A stretch of DNA of 60,561 nucleotides, filler included, from Globobulimina sp. (lineage: Eukaryota): NCBI GenBank assembly GCA_003354225.1. It is 9 parts of 9 records of this genome, joined end to end, with 100 filler letters (N's around TTAATTAATTAA, not from the genome) between each part and the next. Parts side by side here need not be neighbours in the genome. Positions count along the whole stretch, not along the records: positions 20,253 to 26,897 come from PIVH01000259.1; 8 more parts are not named here. One strand, written 5' to 3'. The notes beneath the pieces are model-generated. The model did no database searches. It saw nothing but the letters and a program-made list of their open reading frames with translations, and was not told the DNA's origin. How positions within the stretch are numbered: position 1 is the stretch's first letter; each line of letters opens with the position of its first letter. Below are positions 2,784 through 50,211 of this stretch, piece by piece. A program made the position numbers and the translations under genes.

Positions 2784-4499
2784 TCATGACGACATATCAT
2801 TTAATGCGAGAACATATTGTTCTGTGAAGGAAAAGCGAGAATAAGAGTCTCTCATTAAAAAAGTAATTACTTCAACGGCGTCATCAAACACATTATACAA
2901 TTCCTCATTCACTAATGAGTTTGCAATTTGATATTGAACATAAATTTTATCCATGGTTGAATACGGTATATTTATTTGAAATTCAGCATTATGTAATATA
3001 TATTTCTCTGTCAATAATTTAAATTTTTCTTGAATGCTAAATGCTTTTGAATGGACGATATCAGATTTTGGTAAATCATCTGGCAAAATAATTATTGAGC
3101 TATCTTCCCCACTATTTTGTGCATCTGATTTTTGTTTTAATCGTCTTATCAGATCTCCTGAGAATTCCTCGTCTTTCTCTTCTTCGAACATTTGCGGTAT
3201 CAGAGCTTCGTACGGCGTATCTTTTTTATTCTGCTTCTTAACACATTTAACTTCATCTAATTCAACGCCACAATTTTTTTTAAATTGACTGGCTTCGTAA
3301 ATAAATAACATGTTTTCTGGACTGAATTCTGTTCAAACATAGAAATCGCAGTACAGTGAATAACTGACAAATGACAATGAAAACATTTTCTCGCAATTAT
3401 GTCTGAAACGTTTTGCCGAGAAAATTTTGTAGAAACACATAAACGAAACATACCATGACATAAATGCGTCATAAACGAATAGATTCCTTCTGATTTTGCT
3501 AAAAATTTGTTCAATGGGATCTTAGCGCTTTGCCCGGCGCCATCTGCGGACAGTGCGTTGGTATATTGTTTCATTAAGGAATCGTGGACAGCATTTTGTA
3601 GCACCCAATATGTGGAAATCATCACCATACAAAAAAACACAGCATCTAAAATAATCTCATTAAGAAGAACAACAAATGCGTACACTTCACCCGTTAATGC
3701 ATTAGTTTCATCCACGATGGCCACCAAAACAAATGAGGCGAAGCCAACCAGTCCCACATATAAAATATATCGAATTTCATCGCGTAATAGAAACACATCC
3801 ATAAACTGTGGGGTCATGCAATAAATAATCCACGTCGTAATAAGTAAGATCAACATTAATGAAGCGAGTGTCGGATAATACAAATCTCCTCCAAAGTTGG
3901 TCAAATTTGAGGTTAAAAACATAATAATAAATTGAACAAATAAAAGTGGGATAAATATTCTGTACATCCAATGCAAATCGCCAAGAGTTGCTTTGTGTGT
4001 TGCATACCAATTACTTTGTTGCGTCGATTCTGAATTTATATGTTTCATCCACGCGCCTTTGGTGATAACCATCGTATATCTTATCTTAAAATTTAATAAC
4101 CACAGTCTCCAAATTAAAATATTTACCATTGAAAAGGAACCAGAAATATAAAAAATTAAGTCGAGAATGTCATGGATTTGTTGGTTGATTATTCGTTCGC
4201 CGGCTCTCTTCAATAAAGCCACTGTTCTGCCTAGAAATTGAATTGAATTGAATTGAATGTCAAGTCAAAGTATATGGTATTCTTTACAAATACAAACCGA
4301 ATGTGGTGTAAATGATGCAAAATACGGACATGGCGACGACTAAGTTGGTGTATCTCTTGGAGATTTCCGGTTGATTTCTTGCTTTGAAATATTTTACAGT
4401 GTGGTATATGACAAATGGCGGTATGATCAACCAAATAAATCCCATCTCAATGGCATACATCACCAAACGCAAAACTCTGTCTTCATCCGCTAAACCCAT
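2784..4499 (-). CDS. 7TM-RGS protein (multi-TM receptor-like region plus C-terminal RGS domain), 3 exons
   Basis: GT-AG introns 4231-4297 and 3329-3453 join three ORFs in frame. Splicing creates the RGS motif HEFSPENMLF, followed by YILHNAEFQINIP and VFDDAVEVITFLMRDSYSRF. About seven hydrophobic helices lie upstream. Confidence 0.85.
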
Positions 4500-21150: not shown

Positions 21151-21266
21151 GGTAAGCAGTGGTGTTTGTTTCGCATGCAACAAAGTTATTTGATCATCAA
21201 CATGTATCAGATTAATTATCTTGTCAGACCCACAAAACACCTCACTCTAAAAATAGCAGATTAATA

Positions 21267-22274
21267 ATGGGCTCGTGTCTTATCACGGCCAAATCAACAA
21301 ATGCTGATTGCAACAATCGCTTAGAATATAAAAATGCCATTAATACACTGACCAAATGGTGGCATGAAAACGTCTCCATACTACCCGATACTGAATATTT
21401 AGAATTAGCAGTGGATCTATACAATAATTTATTTCTTAAAATGCCATCGGTACAAAAAATGTTTATGTCGCGCAACATCGATATGCACAGTCAGGCACTC
21501 AAAATGTTGGGCATGTTCCGATGGATAATATTAAGTTCGACAGATTCAACAATATCTGACAATACTTTAGTTGCATTGCATCAATTAGGCCGTTTACACG
21601 ATGGTCTCGGCATTACATTGGACGATTATTTATTGGCTGGCTCTATTTTTCAAGAAACAATGAGCAAAGCATTCGGCAATACATATAATTTAAGAACAAA
21701 ATGGTGTTTTAATATATTGTATGAAATCATGGTCGGTGTTATGACTGGAAAATCTTTCAACGAATTATGTAACAAACAAAATGATAAATTAATGTCACTC
21801 TGGAAACAATTTGACGATAACAGTATGTCCGTAAAAGATTGCTTGGGAAATGAAGAAATAATGTCATATTTACAGTTATTTATGAAAGAACGATTTTGCA
21901 TTGAATCATTTTTATTTATTGACGATTATAAGAAGTATAAATTGTTATTTTTTAATAATAATAATAATAAGAATGCGTTTGGTGAATATATGAAAGAATT
22001 ATATATCGAAAGTAATTCACAACAACAAATAAATATAAGTGGACCGTGTCGGATTTTATTTTATCAGACGTTGGCCACTCAAAATAATGTGTATACAGAT
22101 AATATTTTTGATGATTGTTATGATCAAGCAATGGAATTGATTCAAAGTTCTGTTTATCCAAAATTTAAACAGGCGATTAAGGAATGTATCAATTCAATAA
22201 ACGTGGAACCATCATCAACAAAAATTGATTTAGGGAAAGCCACGAATAGATCATTAATTGTTAAATTAGTATAA
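21267..22274 (+). CDS. Globin-RGS fusion protein with N-terminal MGSC acylation motif
   Basis: Residues ~20-160 form a 3/3 globin (LYNNLFLKMPSVQKMF, SQALKM, LHQLGRLHDGLGI). Residues ~187-302 form an RGS box (YLQLFMKERFCIESFLFIDDYKKYK, YIESNSQQQINIS, IFDDCYDQAMELIQSSVYPKF). Single uninterrupted ORF. Confidence 0.85.
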   Translation: MGSCLITAKSTNADCNNRLEYKNAINTLTKWWHENVSILPDTEYLELAVDLYNNLFLKMPSVQKMFMSRNIDMHSQALKMLGMFRWIILSSTDSTISDNTLVALHQLGRLHDGLGITLDDYLLAGSIFQETMSKAFGNTYNLRTKWCFNILYEIMVGVMTGKSFNELCNKQNDKLMSLWKQFDDNSMSVKDCLGNEEIMSYLQLFMKERFCIESFLFIDDYKKYKLLFFNNNNNKNAFGEYMKELYIESNSQQQINISGPCRILFYQTLATQNNVYTDNIFDDCYDQAMELIQSSVYPKFKQAIKECINSINVEPSSTKIDLGKATNRSLIVKLV

Positions 22275-22703
22275 TATATAACTAATGTTGTTTTTTGTGG
22301 CATCCCTTTTCTATAATAATTAATAATAAGTTAATATATATAATAAGTTATTTTTTTTTGTCGCGTCTCCTCTTTTTTGTTCTTAATGTTTATGTAATTT
22401 TAATATTTTAAATTTATAATACTTATGTATCACAGTTGTCAGTGAGAAACAAAAGCTTAATTATCTTGGTGTATATTGTAAAATCAACGTATATATATAA
22501 TTTAATACATGGTACATATAACTTAAAACGGATTAGAAATTTTTCAATCAACGCAGTGTGTGCCACAAAAATGTATGACAACATGTTGCGATGTTACCAT
22601 AACTCGTTGTTTGACTGTGCATATTTTTTTATCGCTGCGGAATAATAAGTGTTACTAACATAAACTTTTAAATATACAAACTTGAGAGTTGTTACCACAA
22701 ACA

Positions 22704-23543
22704 ATGGGTTGTTCCTTCTCAGACGACGATACTGATTCTAAATCGTATCAAAAAGTTGACACTCTTAAGAAGAAAACCAAATCCACCGCTAGGAAAATGT
22801 ATAATGGCATGAATGTATTGCAGAACATTCCGGCAGCATGGTATTACACAGCAACATCTGTAGCACCATCAAAATTACCAAGATCAATTCGAGCAAGAAC
22901 TTGTACAGATAGAAATTTGCAGAAATTGGGAGGAACTGCAGCTGACAGAAACAATTTTTACGATTTCATGAATAATAAAAAACATATATGGGGAATGGGA
23001 GGAACGCCTGACTCTAAGGGAATATTAGGAGGATCAAAACAAACTTATTCTTCAGGACACCATAGATTCGTAGCCATTGGAAATTTAGAGTTAGCCATAC
23101 AACAAGCAGCAGATACCTATAATTCATATCCTATACATGAGACTCAAGATAATCCGTTGGTATTTACTTATGCTGGGCACGGCGAAGAATATACCGGGAA
23201 TTGGGCGATAACGAATGGAGATACAGGCAAAGTAGACACAGTTTCATTGGAAGATATTTTAGCTCATTGGGATAGGGAATCGACTTCATATTTATTAATT
23301 ATTTCAGATTCGTGTTATTCAGGATGTTGGGTGAGACGAATGAAGAGTTATCATCGCAAAAGTAAATATTTGAATGTTGATGTGATTGCTTCATGTCAAG
23401 CAGATGAACTTTCCGGAGAGAATAAAAATGGTGGATTTTTTACCTACGCATTTTTACAAGCATTGAGAGATGGTGTTACTACAAAACAAGGTTTCATGGC
23501 AAGATGGAGAAGAACCGATCAAACTCCTTGCTTTTCATTTTAA
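22704..23543 (+). CDS. Caspase-fold (peptidase C14, metacaspase-like) cysteine protease with N-terminal MGC motif
   Basis: Intact His/Cys dyad motifs LVFTYAGHG and LLIISDSCYSG; p10-like VIASCQADELSGE..GGFFTYAF. Confidence 0.8.
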   Translation: MGCSFSDDDTDSKSYQKVDTLKKKTKSTARKMYNGMNVLQNIPAAWYYTATSVAPSKLPRSIRARTCTDRNLQKLGGTAADRNNFYDFMNNKKHIWGMGGTPDSKGILGGSKQTYSSGHHRFVAIGNLELAIQQAADTYNSYPIHETQDNPLVFTYAGHGEEYTGNWAITNGDTGKVDTVSLEDILAHWDRESTSYLLIISDSCYSGCWVRRMKSYHRKSKYLNVDVIASCQADELSGENKNGGFFTYAFLQALRDGVTTKQGFMARWRRTDQTPCFSF

Positions 23544-41345: not shown

Positions 41346-44300
41346 TTATTTGTTTGACAAACACTGTCTCGCAACACCGGTAATAGCATCAATCAGCATA
41401 AACTCCGCACAATATATAGCACATGTAATCCTATCATTTGATTGTGTTTCCAAAGCAATCAAAACATCAGAATCATCCGCCAACAAATACGCCGCAAAAT
41501 ATCTCTGTTTATTGATATCAAACTTATGTTTATTTGCGCCGGAATTTACAATCCCCACATTAAATGATTTCAAAACACTGTTTGCCGCTTCCTCAATAGA
41601 CTTCATCTCACAATTTAAGTTCCTTTCGTTCATAGCACCGCTCTGTTCTTTTTTTTTAATAAAATCATCCACCGAATACGACACATTCGGCCTCATTAAC
41701 TCGCCGGGAATCCCTTTGATTTTCGCAGTGTGCCGTTTCTTATTCGTGCCTTGTTCCACATTGATATCAAACCTCATTTCCGATGTTTTGCCAAACTGCA
41801 CATGAATTAAATCAATCTTTTTCTGCCCGGGACTCAATTCATTAATGCCACCATCAAATATGTCATGGTAATCTTGCTGTGACTTATCCAAATTGTGCGG
41901 ACACAGCGATATCCCTTTCATGACATTGTCCCACCGATTCATAAATATTAACTTAATTTGATTGAAACGGACGCCATATCGCGAGGCTTGCCGCACAAAT
42001 TCGTACTCGATTTGCAAGCCTTGCGTATGAGTATGGTTTAATAGTTCCCCTTTAAAGCCAACAAAATCTTTCTCAGACTTCATCAGTGTCTCTGCAGAGG
42101 CTCCAAACAATATATCCTCACTCATATCAGTCACTGAATTGCTCGTAACAGTGGAGGTGCCCATAACAGATGAAAATAGATCACTTAATTGATCCGCTCG
42201 CTGCTTCTCTTTCTGTTTAATAGTGATCGTGTCCAATGCGTCCAATTTCTTTTCAGCGTCGTCCAGTTTTATATCTTTTATTTCCGCAGAGTCGCGATCG
42301 GAGTCCGTGTCACTGGCAAAATCATCAGAGCCTAAGCTATCACTTTCACTCTCTTCCTCGGACGAGGACTGTTTCTTTTTTTTAGCCTTACTTTTCTTCT
42401 TTGATTTTTTGCTTTTCTTTTCTGGTTCGGCAGTATCTTTTTTTTTGCTCTTCTTTTTGGATTTTTTCTTTGATTTTGTATCTGGATCCACAGCGTCGGC
42501 CGCTTGGGTTTTGGGCTTAGGATCAGTCTGTCCGCCACCTAACAAATCAAACATATCGAACGTAGCATTACTATGCGTATTCGCATTCGCATTGTCATCA
42601 TGCAATGGTACCATTACTGTAGCGACTTGCGCGGGTTTTGATTTTGCGGAAATATCACCGAACAAATCACCCAATAAATCACTTGGCTGTGGTTTCTCTT
42701 TCTGTCTATCCTTCACTTCACTGTCGCCTTCATTCTTTTTCTCCTTTTTATTTTTCTTTTTCTTGGCCTTTTTGCCCTTCTTTGCACTCACAATCTTGAC
42801 AAGTTCCTCACTCTCACTCTCATCCTCGGAACTGCCATCGCTCAGATCCTCAGAACTGGCGTCCTTAACCTTCAGCACCTTTACCTTCTTCTTATCCACT
42901 TCTGTCTTCTTATCCTTGTCCTCCTTTTTCTTATTACCCGCAGTCGCAGACACAAACAACTCCGCCACTTCCAATTCCTCACTCGAACTCTCTTCCTCTT
43001 CCACCGGTTCCTCCTCTTCCTCTTCCTCCTCACTCTCATCCTCCTCCTCCTCACTCGAACTCTGTGGCTTGCGCCTCTTCGATTTCTTATCCACTTTCTT
43101 CGCAGCCGCAGCTTTCTGAACTTCCACCTCCGACTCACTCTCACTCTCACTCTCATCCTCCGACTCGCTTTCACTCTCACTCTCGCTCTCAGAATCATCA
43201 CTATCTGAATCCGAATCTGACTCCGAATCAGAGTCTGAGTCATCACTATCACTGCCACTGTCACTCTCGCTCTCTGACTCATCGCTATCCGAATCACTGT
43301 CACTGCCATCAGTGTCCGACGACGTAAACTCCTCAATAGAGTCGTCAAAAAAGCCCAGTCCGCTCTTATCCTTGTCTTTGCCGCGCGGCGTGCCCGATTT
43401 CCACAGCTTATCACTCATCGTATTATCGACCGGCGTGCGCTTCTCGTGATTATCCGGCGGAATCTCTGGGAAAGCCTCCAAACTCTGATAATTGTCACCG
43501 GCGGAATGCAGCACCATATGCGACAATGTGTTCATTACAAAGCGGTCGCGGTCCTGGAACGGCGACACGATTTCCGGCAACTTCTTCTCCGACAAGAACA
43601 TTTCTTGCATTTTCGTCCGTAATTCGCGCTGCATTTCAGCGTCAATCTCGGCAGTGTTTTTGGCCGATTTCTTCTTCTTTTTCTGGAAGAATATGCACCG
43701 AACCAGCCGCGCGCGATCGCGTAGGTCGTAGTTTTGGTCATATTTGCAGAGATCTAAGATGTATTTGAATAATAAAATCACTTTCTTAGGGTCGGCGAGG
43801 TACACTTTCACGGCGAGGTTAAGTATCTGCATTTTCACCTCGTTGGCCTCATGGATGAATTTCTTGGCTAAAATGCGCAGAGCGTCTGGTACGTAGTCGC
43901 TTATATACTGACGGTATTCGCCAATGATCCAAACAATGGCACAGCGGGCCTGCGGCACGTTGGTTTTTTGCAACAAGCGGAGGAGTTTAAGCATGGATTT
44001 CTCGTAATGGCTGGGATTGCGTTGGATGATTTGCCGGATGACGATGACGGAGGAGGCCACGACGTCGGGTGACTGGTTGGAGGGCGACAGCAACGACATT
44101 AAGGAATGCATGGTTTTTTCCGCGACGTCGGGGATCATGGAACTGCAGCGGCCCATGGCTTCAATGGTGGAGCAACGGAATGAAATGTCCGAATCTTTGG
44201 CGTATGCCTCGAACTCACGCAATATAGGACCTTTATGCATATTTCTATAGTGAAGGAAAGCAAAAACGTTTTCGTTATAGAATTGAAAATATAACAGTAC

Positions 44301-45580
44301 CGATATTGCCTTCTGTAGCGATTTTGGACAAAATATCTAACTTTAATTCTTTGATGAAGCCGGCTTCAATGGGTTTGATATAGAAATCTTTGTAAAAGCC
44401 GGCGAATAAATCACTGCGCGCCGAGGCCATCGTGGATATATTGGCCAATATACAATATGTCAGTTCCCGTTTGCTGAAGTTTACAAACTGTACAAGTGCA
44501 CGGATTGACTCCATACAGTCATTTTTTGGCGCGCAATAAAACAACAATGTCACCACAGATAACACGACCGATGAGTTCATGGAATATACCAAGTTCTTAC
44601 ACGAATCAATCAGTAGTTTATGGTCAGAATCCAATTCAATAAAATCATCCGCGCCATCATTGGCTAACAAGTCAACATCGTCATCCTCGCTTTTCTCATC
44701 GTCATCGTCTGTTTTTTGCTCTTCTTTGAGAAAGGGAGACTTAAACTGATTCCTGCTGTATCTGAGCAACATTTGTAAGGCCACAACCTGTCCATATTCG
44801 TCCATGTCCGCCAATAGATGGCAGATTTTGCGGTAATTGAGATGGATTAAGTCGAATTGGTTGGGACAGAGCATGTTAAACGCGTACAATGCACCGGATA
44901 GTACATAGACGTTATCGTCAGCCAACAACGTGGTTAACATAGCAATGAGCTCCACTTTCCATTTGCTGTCCAGTTTACACACTGAGGGCAAGACTTGGGC
45001 CGCCGTGCGGCGTACATAAGCACTCGAGTCTTTGACTGCGTTTTTCAACGCCAAGATGATTAAATGTGTGACGGAGTTGACGCGCATACAAGACATTGCA
45101 TGCAAAGCTTTGGCGCGCACCAAGGGATTGGGAGAGGCCATGTCTTTCTGGAAGGAGGAGATGGATAACAAGGCGAGGTTGGGATTGGTGGAGGCGTAGT
45201 GGATGACGTACATATAAACCAATTTCTTGATTTCCATGGATTCGACCACTACATTTTTGACTACGGAGGGGAATAATTCAGAGACATCGCGGCCTAATGT
45301 CATCATCTGTTATTATATGGTCATCCTTGCACTGCCGGTGGAGAATGGGCTGTATATATTTAACTGCAATCAGTGTTTTCATAGCATCCAATTTTTGTTT
45401 CTCTGATTTGTTTTCTAATTTCTCACGCAACGCATCGAACTTCCCTTTGCCTTCTTGGAAGTGTTTGGCGTCGCCTACTAAACTGATGGAGCTCATCATG
45501 TTTTTTAAATTGCCCATTGAGGACTCGATTTGACGGCCCATTTGTTTCACTTTGCGTGAGGCTGTCTCTACGGTGTCCAT
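41346..45580 (-). CDS. AP3B: AP-3 adaptor complex beta subunit, 3 exons
   Basis: Introns 45307-45364 and 44231-44300. KLDAMKTLIAMMTLGRDVSELFPSVVKNV, ALLSISSFQKD, KYDQNYDLRDRAR, long Ser/Asp/Glu hinge, C-terminal ear domain. Confidence 0.95.
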
Positions 45581-48297: not shown

Positions 48298-50211
48298 TTA
48301 GCATCTTTGTGGATATATATGTTTTTGCAATTTATATTTATCCAATGCTTTAAAGAACTCATCAACGTCGATTTCACCGGAATTATCAACATCGAAATAC
48401 TTAAATATTGCTTTTAATTGATACGGATTTACATTCCAACCATATTTGGAACATAATGATTTCATTTCCGATGGACTAATAAATCTGTCTTTATCTTCAT
48501 CGATAAATCGAAATGTTTTTGTATGATTAACTGATCGATCCCATAATTTATCAGCCAATCCTTTTAATATTGTTTCTGGAGAATCTCTGGTGAATACATC
48601 AATATTATCATTCATAATGGCTGTGGTTTGCTTATCCGTTTCTATCAAATCAAAACGAAAACCATTAATCAATAAAGTGGCGCCAACATAAAAATCTTCG
48701 GCATGAAACCATTTGGCGCCGTTTCCATGATTTTTTAATTTGGTTCGTTCTAAAAATTTGCCAGAAACAATTCCGGAATTTCGTAATGGCCGTTCATATA
48801 TTTTTACTGTAGCGTCGGTCAAAAAAAATTCAATCACAAATCTTCTTTCATAATTTTCAAATTGAGTATGTTTCTCATTTAATTTGGCTAAAAACCTTAA
48901 ACAACATCCATCGTATTTCGTTAATTTGTGATGATCTTTTACCGGAGGTTTGGGGACCAATGATTTCCATGAACCTAAACTGTCCTCTTCTGTTCCAAAA
49001 CCATTATATGGCGGAACCTCTCTTTCTTGCTTATTTATTGCATCATTTGCATTTTCTTTCTTTTTTATTACAATTTCTTCAAAATCACACTCTTTTAAAT
49101 GATGTATTTGTTTATAAAATTCTTTCGTATATTTATCACACGAAGTTAATAAAACTTGTCTGCCATAAACATTTAAATAACCACCAATCCGTAAATCTGA
49201 ATGATTGTAATAATCATTATTTTTGGCAGATTTATCATGTTTAATACCAATAATACAACCCGCTGGAATATAGATTTTGGGCAAATTCTCTCTTTTCAAT
49301 GTCATTATTAATTTTTCACCTTTTTTATCATTCTCATCATACTGTAACACTTGGATTGTGTCATCGGATAAAAAATATAATATTACATAATATTTGGTGG
49401 TACCACCCCATGAGTTATCTACCCAACAACCATTAAATCGCAATACTTTGCCATCATTTGCCAAATATTTTTTCGATTTTGCCAATCTTTCCGAGGATAT
49501 TCGACCTAAAATCGCTTCAACATAAGATTTTACATCGGACGATTCATTGGCTGATAATTGGCAAAGTCGCTCTCTTTTCTCTAAATGGCGAATATAATCA
49601 TCTTTGGGATATGGCAATGCTTTATGTAATGCAATATTATGTGTCTCTGCATAATATTTTCTTGTTGCGACATCTGCATCGATTATATGAAATTTTCGAT
49701 TATAAATTTCTAATTCTCCACCAACTAAAAAATTTAAATAATTAAACCAACCGTTTTTACCATTTGGTATTTTTTGTCTTTTTAAAAATCTCGATTGAGG
49801 AATACCGGAATTTTCTTTACGAATTTCATCGATTGTCACAGTATCATCTTCTAAGAAATAATAAATTATACATTTTCTAACTCTTTCATTTTCAATGGGT
49901 GAATTAAATACATTTTCCGTGAAAAATGAATAAAATCTTAATACTTTTCGATCAAAGAGAACCCATTTTTGTAATACATTCATTGCTAATTTATTATTTG
50001 TATTTGCATTTTCTTTATCTTGTGCATCAATTTGTGTTTTTGATATTATTTTATTTTCCAATTCTTTTGGTGATAACTTTGTTGTTTCAATATCTGTCAC
50101 TGGCACATTATTGACAATATCAAATAAATGTGATTTATGAAATCTATTTCTTGTCTCTACGGACACTCTGAATCCTGGAATATTTGGTAAATCCGACTGA
50201 TTCAAATTCAT
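48298..50211 (-). CDS. EFHC1: EFHC1/RIB72-family protein (three DM10 domains plus EF-hands)
   Basis: DRKVLRFY...YFLEDDT...ENSGIPQ, GKVLRF, PPYNGFGTEEDSL, RNSGIVSGKFLER; EF loops DEDKDRFISPSE and DVDNSGEIDVDEF. Confidence 0.93.
   Translation of the reverse strand: MNLNQSDLPNIPGFRVSVETRNRFHKSHLFDIVNNVPVTDIETTKLSPKELENKIISKTQIDAQDKENANTNNKLAMNVLQKWVLFDRKVLRFYSFFTENVFNSPIENERVRKCIIYYFLEDDTVTIDEIRKENSGIPQSRFLKRQKIPNGKNGWFNYLNFLVGGELEIYNRKFHIIDADVATRKYYAETHNIALHKALPYPKDDYIRHLEKRERLCQLSANESSDVKSYVEAILGRISSERLAKSKKYLANDGKVLRFNGCWVDNSWGGTTKYYVILYFLSDDTIQVLQYDENDKKGEKLIMTLKRENLPKIYIPAGCIIGIKHDKSAKNNDYYNHSDLRIGGYLNVYGRQVLLTSCDKYTKEFYKQIHHLKECDFEEIVIKKKENANDAINKQEREVPPYNGFGTEEDSLGSWKSLVPKPPVKDHHKLTKYDGCCLRFLAKLNEKHTQFENYERRFVIEFFLTDATVKIYERPLRNSGIVSGKFLERTKLKNHGNGAKWFHAEDFYVGATLLINGFRFDLIETDKQTTAIMNDNIDVFTRDSPETILKGLADKLWDRSVNHTKTFRFIDEDKDRFISPSEMKSLCSKYGWNVNPYQLKAIFKYFDVDNSGEIDVDEFFKALDKYKLQKHIYPQRC

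Follow-up and report, generated by a model that had tools for sequence, protein, structure and literature searches.

A paralogous family of globin–RGS fusion proteins in foraminifera, candidate heme sensors acting on heterotrimeric G proteins

In a 60,561-nucleotide stretch of DNA from Globobulimina sp. (assembly GCA_003354225.1; nine records joined with filler, hereafter the window), the part derived from PIVH01000259.1 carries an intact gene for a single protein that joins an N-terminal globin domain to an RGS domain (named for regulators of G-protein signaling). We find that this gene is one paralog of a large globin–RGS gene family of foraminifera. Based on domain assignments, residue conservation and a structural model, we propose, with moderate confidence, that these proteins, which are probably lipid-anchored, are membrane-proximal heme sensors whose output would be the action of the RGS domain on G-protein α subunits (Gα).

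A globin–RGS gene family of foraminifera

A word-indexed search returned one full-length relative of the window protein (348 residues, 58% identical), and the full-length ortholog from Bolivina argentea is 58–61% identical to it. An exhaustive search of representative sequences recovered 122 proteins at E ≤ 0.001, with 21 at E ≤ 1e-10 and five at E ≤ 1e-30, and many of these were matched across both domains in one stretch. When 133 proteins were scored with separate globin and RGS hidden Markov models (HMMs) derived from a 30-sequence alignment (A1), 54 were found to contain both domains, 35 the globin only, 42 the RGS domain only, and two neither. Fragments and seven near-duplicate cluster members are counted among the 54, as is the window protein, and the globin-only set includes truncated family members together with bacterial-looking proteins of many globin units. 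As judged by Pfam at E ≤ 0.001, with the aligned members submitted singly, RGS is recognized in 30 of 30 and Globin in 21 of 30. Run against solved chains, the 30-sequence profile matches structures of both kinds: the globin 3s1i (4.6e-20), RGS1 (2e-18), RGS2 (2.1e-18), RGS4 (5.7e-15) and axin (2.4e-11).

The first-pass annotation had pointed to rhizarian and other protist transcriptomes for architectures combining globin and RGS domains, and this fits, as every named relative proved to be foraminiferal. Twenty-eight both-domain clusters were looked up, and all 21 that carry an organism name come from four genera (B. argentea, Nonionella stella, Ammonia sp. and Elphidium margaritaceum); the other seven are P0008, P0021, P0041, P0116, P0046, P0033 and P0096. 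Those with a name are records of EukProt or MMETSP, a few of them with the label ‘Transcript’; we take these collections to be transcriptomes, in which case four genera transcribe the fusion as a single message.

In a maximum-likelihood tree of 35 rows (quick search, with support from the Shimodaira–Hasegawa-like approximate likelihood ratio test), the window protein pairs with Bolivina P0002 (support 100), and P0125, also from Bolivina, joins this pair next (93). Several genera are mixed within each of at least five well-supported groups, which indicates that the expansion is older than the split of these rotaliid genera, and B. argentea alone contributes nine rows.

Integrity of the gene and its coverage in read sets

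The first-pass annotation had described an intronless open reading frame (ORF) of 335 residues beginning MGSC, and the uninterrupted frame from ATG to TAA confirms it. An in-frame TAA lies upstream at 21213–21215, with no ATG between it and the gene start, and at the local base composition (G+C of 30% around the ORF) the chance of 335 stop-free codons is ~5e-13. The stretch, or part of it, is present in eight read-set rows from four studies, and four runs (X1, X3, X6 and X8) were compared. The junction between the two domains, 21745–21825, is spanned in all four, whose library type is not recorded as RNA: single contigs cross it in X1 (record 2), X6 (record 11) and X8 (record 12), which belong to three studies, and overlapping contigs do so in X3. 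Since zero joints are reported in any of the four runs, the gene is colinear with its DNA.

In X1, a single 1203-letter contig corresponds exactly to 21246–22448 at a depth of 54.8, and the upstream flank is a separate contig at a depth of 3.5. Coverage extends over 21240–22359 in X3 (overlapping pieces), 21240–22249 in X8 and 21288–22416 in X6, and the contigs of X3 and X8, from two studies, both start at 21240 with sequencing adapter immediately ahead. Gene-bounded contigs, a depth step at the edge and a common start form a transcript-like pattern, which we regard as a hint of expression.

A ~93%-identical copy of the gene, with 67 differences from the window, is present in X6 and X8. Among the 39 coding differences listed, 21 are synonymous and 18 nonsynonymous, and all ten indels listed for X6 fall 3′ of the stop codon; the substitutions are skewed to synonymous changes, consistent with selection on the coding frame. 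Based on these observations, we conclude that the gene is real and intact.

The window has C at position 22125 and G at 22128, but each of the four read sets, the near-identical X1 and X3 among them, reads G and A there; this would give Q287 to E and A288 to T and reflects either an allele or an error in the assembly consensus. Short extra contigs in X3 and X8 match just 21492–21534, a conserved E-helix region (GMFRW), and then continue into unlike sequence; most simply, these are transcripts or genes of paralogs in the same samples. An NCBIfam scan of the protein returned zero families, as expected for a eukaryotic protein. A scan for sigma-70 promoters and terminators, which is not relevant to a eukaryote, was uninformative (14 sites versus 12.7 expected, and zero terminators).

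Globin domain

The N-terminal half scores 24.4 bits against Pfam Globin (PF00042; curated cut-off 22) over residues 50–146. In a whole-chain model obtained with AlphaFold2 and alignment A1 (mean predicted local distance difference test, pLDDT, of 83.3; predicted template modeling score of 0.68), the globin helices span residues 22–35, 41–58, 60–67, 73–90, 98–113, 118–136 and 142–159, with block pLDDT values mostly of 83–98. A Foldseek comparison gives a template modeling (TM) score of 0.78 to Hell’s Gate globin I (3s1i_A) and ~0.7 to neuroglobins. Searched as a single sequence against the Protein Data Bank (PDB) with phmmer, the protein matches 3wfw best (7.1e-6), followed by 3s1i (1.7e-4), with neuroglobins at E 0.24 and worse; the nearest solved chains bear the name ‘hemoglobin-like flavoprotein’.

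The phmmer alignment to 3s1i places Y52 on Y29, F66 on F43, Q76 on Q50 and H111 on the His of LGRRH, positions that in Hell’s Gate globin I we take to be B10, CD1, E7 and F8, respectively. The 3-on-3 globin of the first-pass annotation, with Tyr52, Pro60, Phe66, Gln76 and His111, is accordingly borne out by a Pfam score above cut-off and by these four equivalences. His111 is the sole invariant column of A1. Across the 54 both-domain proteins, with each column counted over the members that cover it (a scope that holds for all residue counts below), the proximal position is His in 51 of 51. B10 is Tyr in 30, Phe in 13, Leu in two and Trp in one (n = 46); CD1 is Phe in 30, Met in nine, Leu in seven and another residue in two (n = 48); and E7 is Gln in 18, Thr in nine, Leu in six, His in three, Ser in three and another residue in ten (n = 49). 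The invariant proximal His points to heme binding as the constraint that holds the family together, and together with a hydrophobic CD1 and Tyr or Phe at B10 in 43 of 46 members, it fits a predicted retention of heme binding via His111.

The distal pocket differs between subfamilies. The clade of the window protein has Tyr at B10, Phe at CD1 and Gln at E7. Gln at E7 also occurs in most or all rows of groups B, F and H, in a protein with reversed domain order (P0046) and in P0050 of a large 15-row clade; in these groups, the reversed form and that one member of the large clade, it is paired with Tyr or Phe at B10, as in the window’s clade. Most of the 15-row clade has Phe at B10, Met or Leu at CD1, and Thr, Leu, Ser or another residue at E7. 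Subfamily-specific distal pockets would be the expected picture of sensors tuned to different ligands.

RGS domain

The C-terminal half scores 26.8 bits against Pfam RGS (PF00615; curated cut-off 23.9) over residues 190–302, covering profile positions 3–110 of 117. Foldseek TM scores, normalized to the target, are 0.80 to RGS1 (2bv1), 0.81 to RGS8 and 0.90 to RGS16 (3c7k_D), with an overall range of 0.78–0.90 for these three, and 0.80 to RGS4 from its complex with Gαi1 (1agr_E). The model thus superposes on RGS structures at one end and on Hell’s Gate globin at the other.

In the family-profile alignment, N256 of the motif QINIS falls on the Asn of QINID in RGS1 and of EINID in RGS2, and the position is Asn in 41 of 46 members; we take it to be the equivalent of RGS4 Asn128. 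The first-pass annotation had proposed a complete RGS box with this Asn in QINIS, and both the Pfam score and the alignment agree. Two further motifs correspond to segments that we presume to hold, in RGS4 numbering, the pairs Glu87/Asn88 (SEEN) and Asp163/Arg167 (DSYxRF). CIES of the window protein is aligned with SEEN in RGS1 and CEEN in RGS2, and SVYPKF with DSYPRF in RGS1 and NSYPRF in RGS2; the departures from canonical sequence that had been flagged in both motifs are correct relative to RGS1. The Glu of the first motif (E213) is Glu in 51 of 53 members, and the preceding C211 is Cys in 48 of 53. Cys at 211, and Asn at the position of residue 295, are the residues of RGS2 where RGS1 has Ser and Asp. 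We presume that these Cys and Asn residues set the preference of RGS2 for Gαq, for which no support was found in the literature searched.

These comparisons suggest that the predicted RGS domain keeps the Asn and the Glu that R4-type GTPase-activating proteins (GAPs) use at the switch regions of Gα, and, as judged by the profile matches, the domain is predicted to be far closer to GAP-type RGS proteins than to axin.

Connector, termini and whole-chain model

The first-pass annotation had placed a linker of ~25 residues between the two domains. There is such a stretch, but it is not modeled as a floppy linker: helices are predicted at residues 164–170, 172–182 and 189–193 with block pLDDT values of 77–86, ahead of an RGS bundle at 196–312, and the family profile places the connector on the residues that precede the RGS box of RGS1. 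Values of pLDDT below 50 are limited to residues 1–20 and 316–335. Co-folding of the globin (with heme) and the RGS domain as separate chains gave a score of 0.13 against a mark of 0.34 in a run without alignment or controls, and allows no conclusion; a look-alike search of the ESM Atlas returned zero usable matches.

The acylation-type N-terminus of the first-pass annotation, MGSC, is present, and a Met-Gly start is a property of the family, being found in 30 of 39 complete N-termini (both-domain proteins with a Met start, a complete globin N-terminus and at least 14 residues ahead of the globin match). Of the nine exceptions, several have the look of models that are truncated or extended too far, as with P0038, whose cluster mate P0131 begins MGSK. 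Among 32 members that start with Met-Gly, position 3 is Asn in 21, position 6 is Ser, Thr, Ala, Gly, Cys or Asn in 22, and a Cys lies within residues 3–6 in ten. The consensus for N-myristoyl transferase has a small or hydroxyl residue at position 6, and the Bolivina ortholog, with Cys4 and Ser6, conforms to it. Membrane anchoring by acylation is thus predicted at the level of the family.

Other arrangements of globin and RGS domains

The two domains also occur together in other orders. P0061, a 908-residue protein of Nonionella stella (EukProt), has seven hydrophobic segments in its first ~290 residues, followed by an RGS domain (Pfam 27.8 bits, residues 314–492) and then a globin (2e-42 against the family HMM, residues 658–801); it is a candidate seven-transmembrane (7TM)–RGS–globin receptor, or else a chimeric transcript assembly. 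In P0046/P0134, a JGI metagenome record, the RGS domain precedes the globin, the Pfam scores are 49.3 and 47.3 bits, and the D..R motif is canonical; a search with P0134 for relatives of this reversed protein returned its own cluster only. Globin and RGS domains are therefore joined in at least two, and possibly three, domain orders, and their repeated pairing suggests a functional link.

Giant multi-globin proteins (P0003, P0132, P0027, P0123 and P0045) are found among the globin-only matches. Proteins of 2461 and 3326 residues contain 14 and 20 tandem globin units, respectively, with ‘hemoglobin-like flavoprotein’ as the JGI source name, and a 1208-residue protein of the diplonemid Sulcionema specki, which starts MGC, combines seven globins with a cytochrome b5 domain.

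Proposed function and alternatives

In the mechanism that we propose, the globin would bind heme through His111, and binding of O2 or nitric oxide (NO), or a redox change of the iron, in the Tyr52/Gln76 pocket would alter the helical connector and its packing on the RGS domain. This would in turn change both the binding of active Gα and the degree to which GTP hydrolysis is accelerated, such that the gas or redox state would set the lifetime of Gα-GTP with no need for a receptor. Gating of GAP activity by heme ligation is a reasonable proposal, and we leave it as a proposal because two canonical Gα contacts are changed and the globin is not of the sensor lineage.

Several observations weigh against a heme-gated GAP at the membrane. 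First, the globin: Protoglobin (PF11563) scores 18.2 bits, under its cut-off of 25, and matches at E ≤ 0.001 in just four of 30 members, and the domain is best classified, on sequence, as a Hell’s Gate or flavohemoglobin-like type outside the protoglobin-related sensor lineage; globins with Tyr at B10 and Gln at E7 often serve in catalysis or in high-affinity O2 binding and not in sensing. Second, the RGS domain: the Asn88 equivalent is S214 here, in a column with Leu in 25, Ile in 11 and Asn in just three (n = 53); the Asp163 equivalent is Ser295, in a column with Asn in 28, Ser in five and Asp in three (n = 42); and the Arg167 equivalent is Lys299, in a variable column with Lys in 14 and Arg in five (n = 41). 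The phmmer search of the PDB with the single sequence matched zero RGS chains, giving only globins, and the domain is therefore divergent, with modest single-sequence support. Third, the N-terminus: with Ile6 next to Cys4 in its acylation motif, the window protein fits the N-myristoylation consensus poorly, which makes the anchoring prediction weaker for this copy than for the family. Finally, none of the eight read-set rows is recorded as RNA, including the runs with gene-sized contigs, and a Pfam scan of the 26 other ORFs of at least 200 residues in the window found no Gα, Gβ or G-protein-coupled receptor (GPCR) domain.

The strongest alternative, which we consider unlikely while still deserving attention, is that activity resides in the globin, which would be an NO dioxygenase, a nitrite reductase or a high-affinity O2 buffer, and that the RGS domain lacks GAP activity and serves only for docking or as a scaffold, like the RGS-homology domains of axin, GRK and sorting-nexin proteins; it would place the globin at Gα or another membrane partner. 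The Tyr52/Gln76 pocket is that of Hell’s Gate globin I, a globin type better known for chemistry than for sensing, and nitrate, NO and low O2 are part of the habitat of foraminifera of these genera. Of 53 members, 50 lack the Asn88 equivalent, and the Arg167 equivalent is variable; GAP activity is not common to all RGS domains, some of which lack it, according to the available part of a survey of GPCR-pathway architectures in eukaryotes (PMC3971589). Against docking, the profile matches R4 GAP-type RGS proteins roughly seven orders of magnitude better than axin, the catalytically important Asn and its neighboring Glu are conserved as described above (41 of 46 and 51 of 53), and the Cys and Asn substitutions are the same as those of RGS2, an active GAP. 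Moreover, an NO dioxygenase would require a reductase domain or partner, and Pfam finds none in the protein.

Control may also run in reverse, with Gα bound to the RGS domain altering how tightly the globin holds its ligand or how reactive it is; alternatively, the globin may itself clamp Gα-GDP in a redox-dependent manner, as neuroglobin does; we judge this improbable. Neuroglobins are among the fold and sequence matches of the globin domain, although they match only weakly, with E-values of 0.24 at best for the single sequence and 2e-7 at best for the profile. As stated in the available text of PMC4842972, ferric human neuroglobin binds Gαi/o-GDP and serves as an inhibitor of guanine nucleotide dissociation (GDI), but zebrafish neuroglobin lacks this property, and hence it is not general to globins.

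Less probable still is a heme-free globin fold that serves as a sensor or dimerization domain like the RsbR-type non-heme globins: Pfam Globin is reached at E ≤ 0.001 in just 21 of 30 members, the E7 position varies widely and CD1 is a residue other than Phe in 18 of 48, but the invariant proximal His, present in 51 of 51, would be difficult to account for in a protein that binds no heme. That the fusion is a mis-assembly or a decaying pseudogene is scarcely credible: the assembly is unannotated and differs at 22125 and 22128 from all four read sets, but this reading was tested and is not supported, given junction-spanning contigs without joints in four runs, the same layout in transcriptome entries from four other genera, a 335-codon open frame (~5e-13 by chance) and substitutions biased to synonymous changes.

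Having weighed these alternatives, we retain the membrane-proximal heme sensor with RGS output as our preferred reading. A bolder version, which we put forward tentatively and would sooner doubt than assume, is that the foraminiferal family as a whole consists of lipid-anchored (in one case 7TM-anchored) heme sensors that are ligand-controlled GAPs for Gα, with paralogs tuned to O2, NO or redox state through their different distal pockets (Tyr/Gln, Phe/Thr, Phe/Leu and others). If true, this would constitute a receptor-independent gas-taxis pathway, which could underlie the known vertical positioning of foraminifera along oxygen and nitrate gradients in sediments, and the first eukaryotic globin-coupled sensor wired into heterotrimeric G-protein signaling. 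Benthic foraminifera matter for nitrogen and carbon cycling in low-oxygen sediments. The globin–RGS family offers a concrete, clonable candidate for O2/NO sensing in amoeboid protists, and a candidate new input to heterotrimeric G-protein signaling.

Features of the window

Coordinates of the gene and its parts are collected in Table 1.

Table 1. Features of the globin–RGS gene, in window coordinates
Feature	Position	Strand	Basis or remark
Probable 5′ untranslated leader	21240..21266	+	Transcript start placed at ~21240 from contig starts; a hint only
Globin–RGS coding sequence, complete, intronless	21267..22274	+	335 residues and TAA stop; starts MGSC
MGSCLIT, candidate N-myristoylation (Gly2) and palmitoylation (Cys4) site	21267..21287	+	Family conservation of the Met-Gly start
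Globin domain, residues 21–162	21327..21752	+	3-on-3 fold; Pfam, family profile, model, Foldseek
His111 codon CAC, predicted proximal (F8) heme ligand	21597..21599	+	Alignment to 3s1i; family conservation
Helical connector, residues 163–189	21753..21833	+	Between globin helix H and the Pfam RGS box
RGS domain, residues 190–312	21834..22202	+	Pfam, family profile, Foldseek
Asn256 codon AAT (QINIS)	22032..22034	+	Predicted equivalent of the switch-contacting Asn of R4-type RGS proteins
C-terminal tail, residues 313–335, predicted disordered	22203..22271	+	pLDDT < 50 (316–335); not conserved in A1
Probable 3′ untranslated region	22275..22448	+	Contig ends: X1 22448, X6 22416, X3 22359

The next gene downstream, 22704–23543 (+), also has an acylation-type start, MGCSFS, and scores 28.5 bits against Peptidase_C14 (cut-off 21.4); its product is possibly a lipid-anchored metacaspase-like protein. 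Elsewhere in the window, a stop-to-stop frame at 2787–3332 (−) matches the family RGS HMM at 4.1e-5 and scores 18.8 bits with Pfam RGS, under the cut-off of 23.9; it may be the final exon of a second, divergent RGS gene extending into the ORF at 3257–4129 (−). An AP-3 beta-type adaptin occupies 41346–45306 (−) in two long frames, 44275–45306 and 41346–44240, and the gap of ~34 bases between them suggests a very short intron. At 48298–50211 (−), three DM10 domains with EF-hands define an EFHC1-like protein (267.9 bits). EFHC1-like proteins are usually associated with flagellar or ciliary axonemes, and this one may be related to the flagellated gametes of foraminifera.

Comparison with known systems

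The first-pass annotation knew of no characterized globin–RGS protein, and no description of one turned up in the literature searched, whose coverage leaves out most subscription papers; the architecture is therefore probably, rather than certainly, undescribed. Among the literature matches listed (title and start of abstract), none of those returned for foraminifera together with globins was relevant, and one family member, P0033, is already present in NCBI/ENA without a name. To our knowledge, globin-type heme gas sensors come almost only from prokaryotes, and we know of no RGS protein that is regulated by a gas-binding cofactor.

Globin-coupled sensors such as HemAT, DosC/DgcO, AfGcHK and BpeGReg are bacterial or archaeal, with MCP, GGDEF, kinase or similar outputs. 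The window protein resembles them in combining an N-terminal globin, a helical connector and a C-terminal signaling domain in one chain, and in that the ligand state of its heme would be expected to set the output. It differs in that its globin lies outside the protoglobin-related sensor lineage, and for this reason we describe it as working like a globin-coupled sensor and do not file it as a member of that class.

The closest solved chains, HGbRL of Methylacidiphilum infernorum (3wfw) and Hell’s Gate globin I (3s1i), have a pocket of Tyr, Phe, Gln and His in common with the window protein. In place of the RGS domain, HGbRL carries a Roadblock/LC7 domain, which we take to belong to a fold family that regulates GTPases (the MglB/Roadblock link); both proteins are bacterial and lack the N-terminal acylation motif. 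With R4 RGS proteins, and with RGS2 in particular, the common features are the RGS fold, the Asn of INI(D/S) and the preceding Glu, and a Cys where RGS1 has Ser; where RGS1 has Asp, most foraminiferal members share the Asn of RGS2 and the window protein has Ser. They differ in the second residue of the Glu-Asn pair (Ser in the window protein, Leu or Ile in most members), in the Arg of DSYPRF, which is Lys in the window protein and variable in the family, and in that R4 proteins have no sensor domain.

A sensing module fused to an RGS domain at the membrane is also found, according to the available part of PMC3971589, in the 7TM-RGS receptor-GAPs of the plant AtRGS1 type, which are widespread in bikonts. 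The logic is similar in that the signal acts on the off-rate of Gα, as opposed to the nucleotide exchange promoted by a GPCR (PMC3971589). The window protein instead has a cytoplasmic globin as sensor and a putative lipid anchor, whereas P0061 combines seven hydrophobic segments, an RGS domain and a globin in one chain; the word ‘globin’ is absent from the main text of the same survey (PMC3971589).

Finally, neuroglobin is a globin that acts on a heterotrimeric Gα subunit under the control of its own oxidation state, and in the available text of PMC4842972, it does so as a single domain that binds Gα-GDP directly, without an RGS domain, the GDI property being restricted to mammalian proteins. 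By analogy, ferric neuroglobin may serve as a precedent for cross-talk between globins and Gα. Should the RGS domain of the foraminiferal proteins merely dock, a globin targeted to Gα would still be new, and would bear on the debated link between neuroglobin and Gα.

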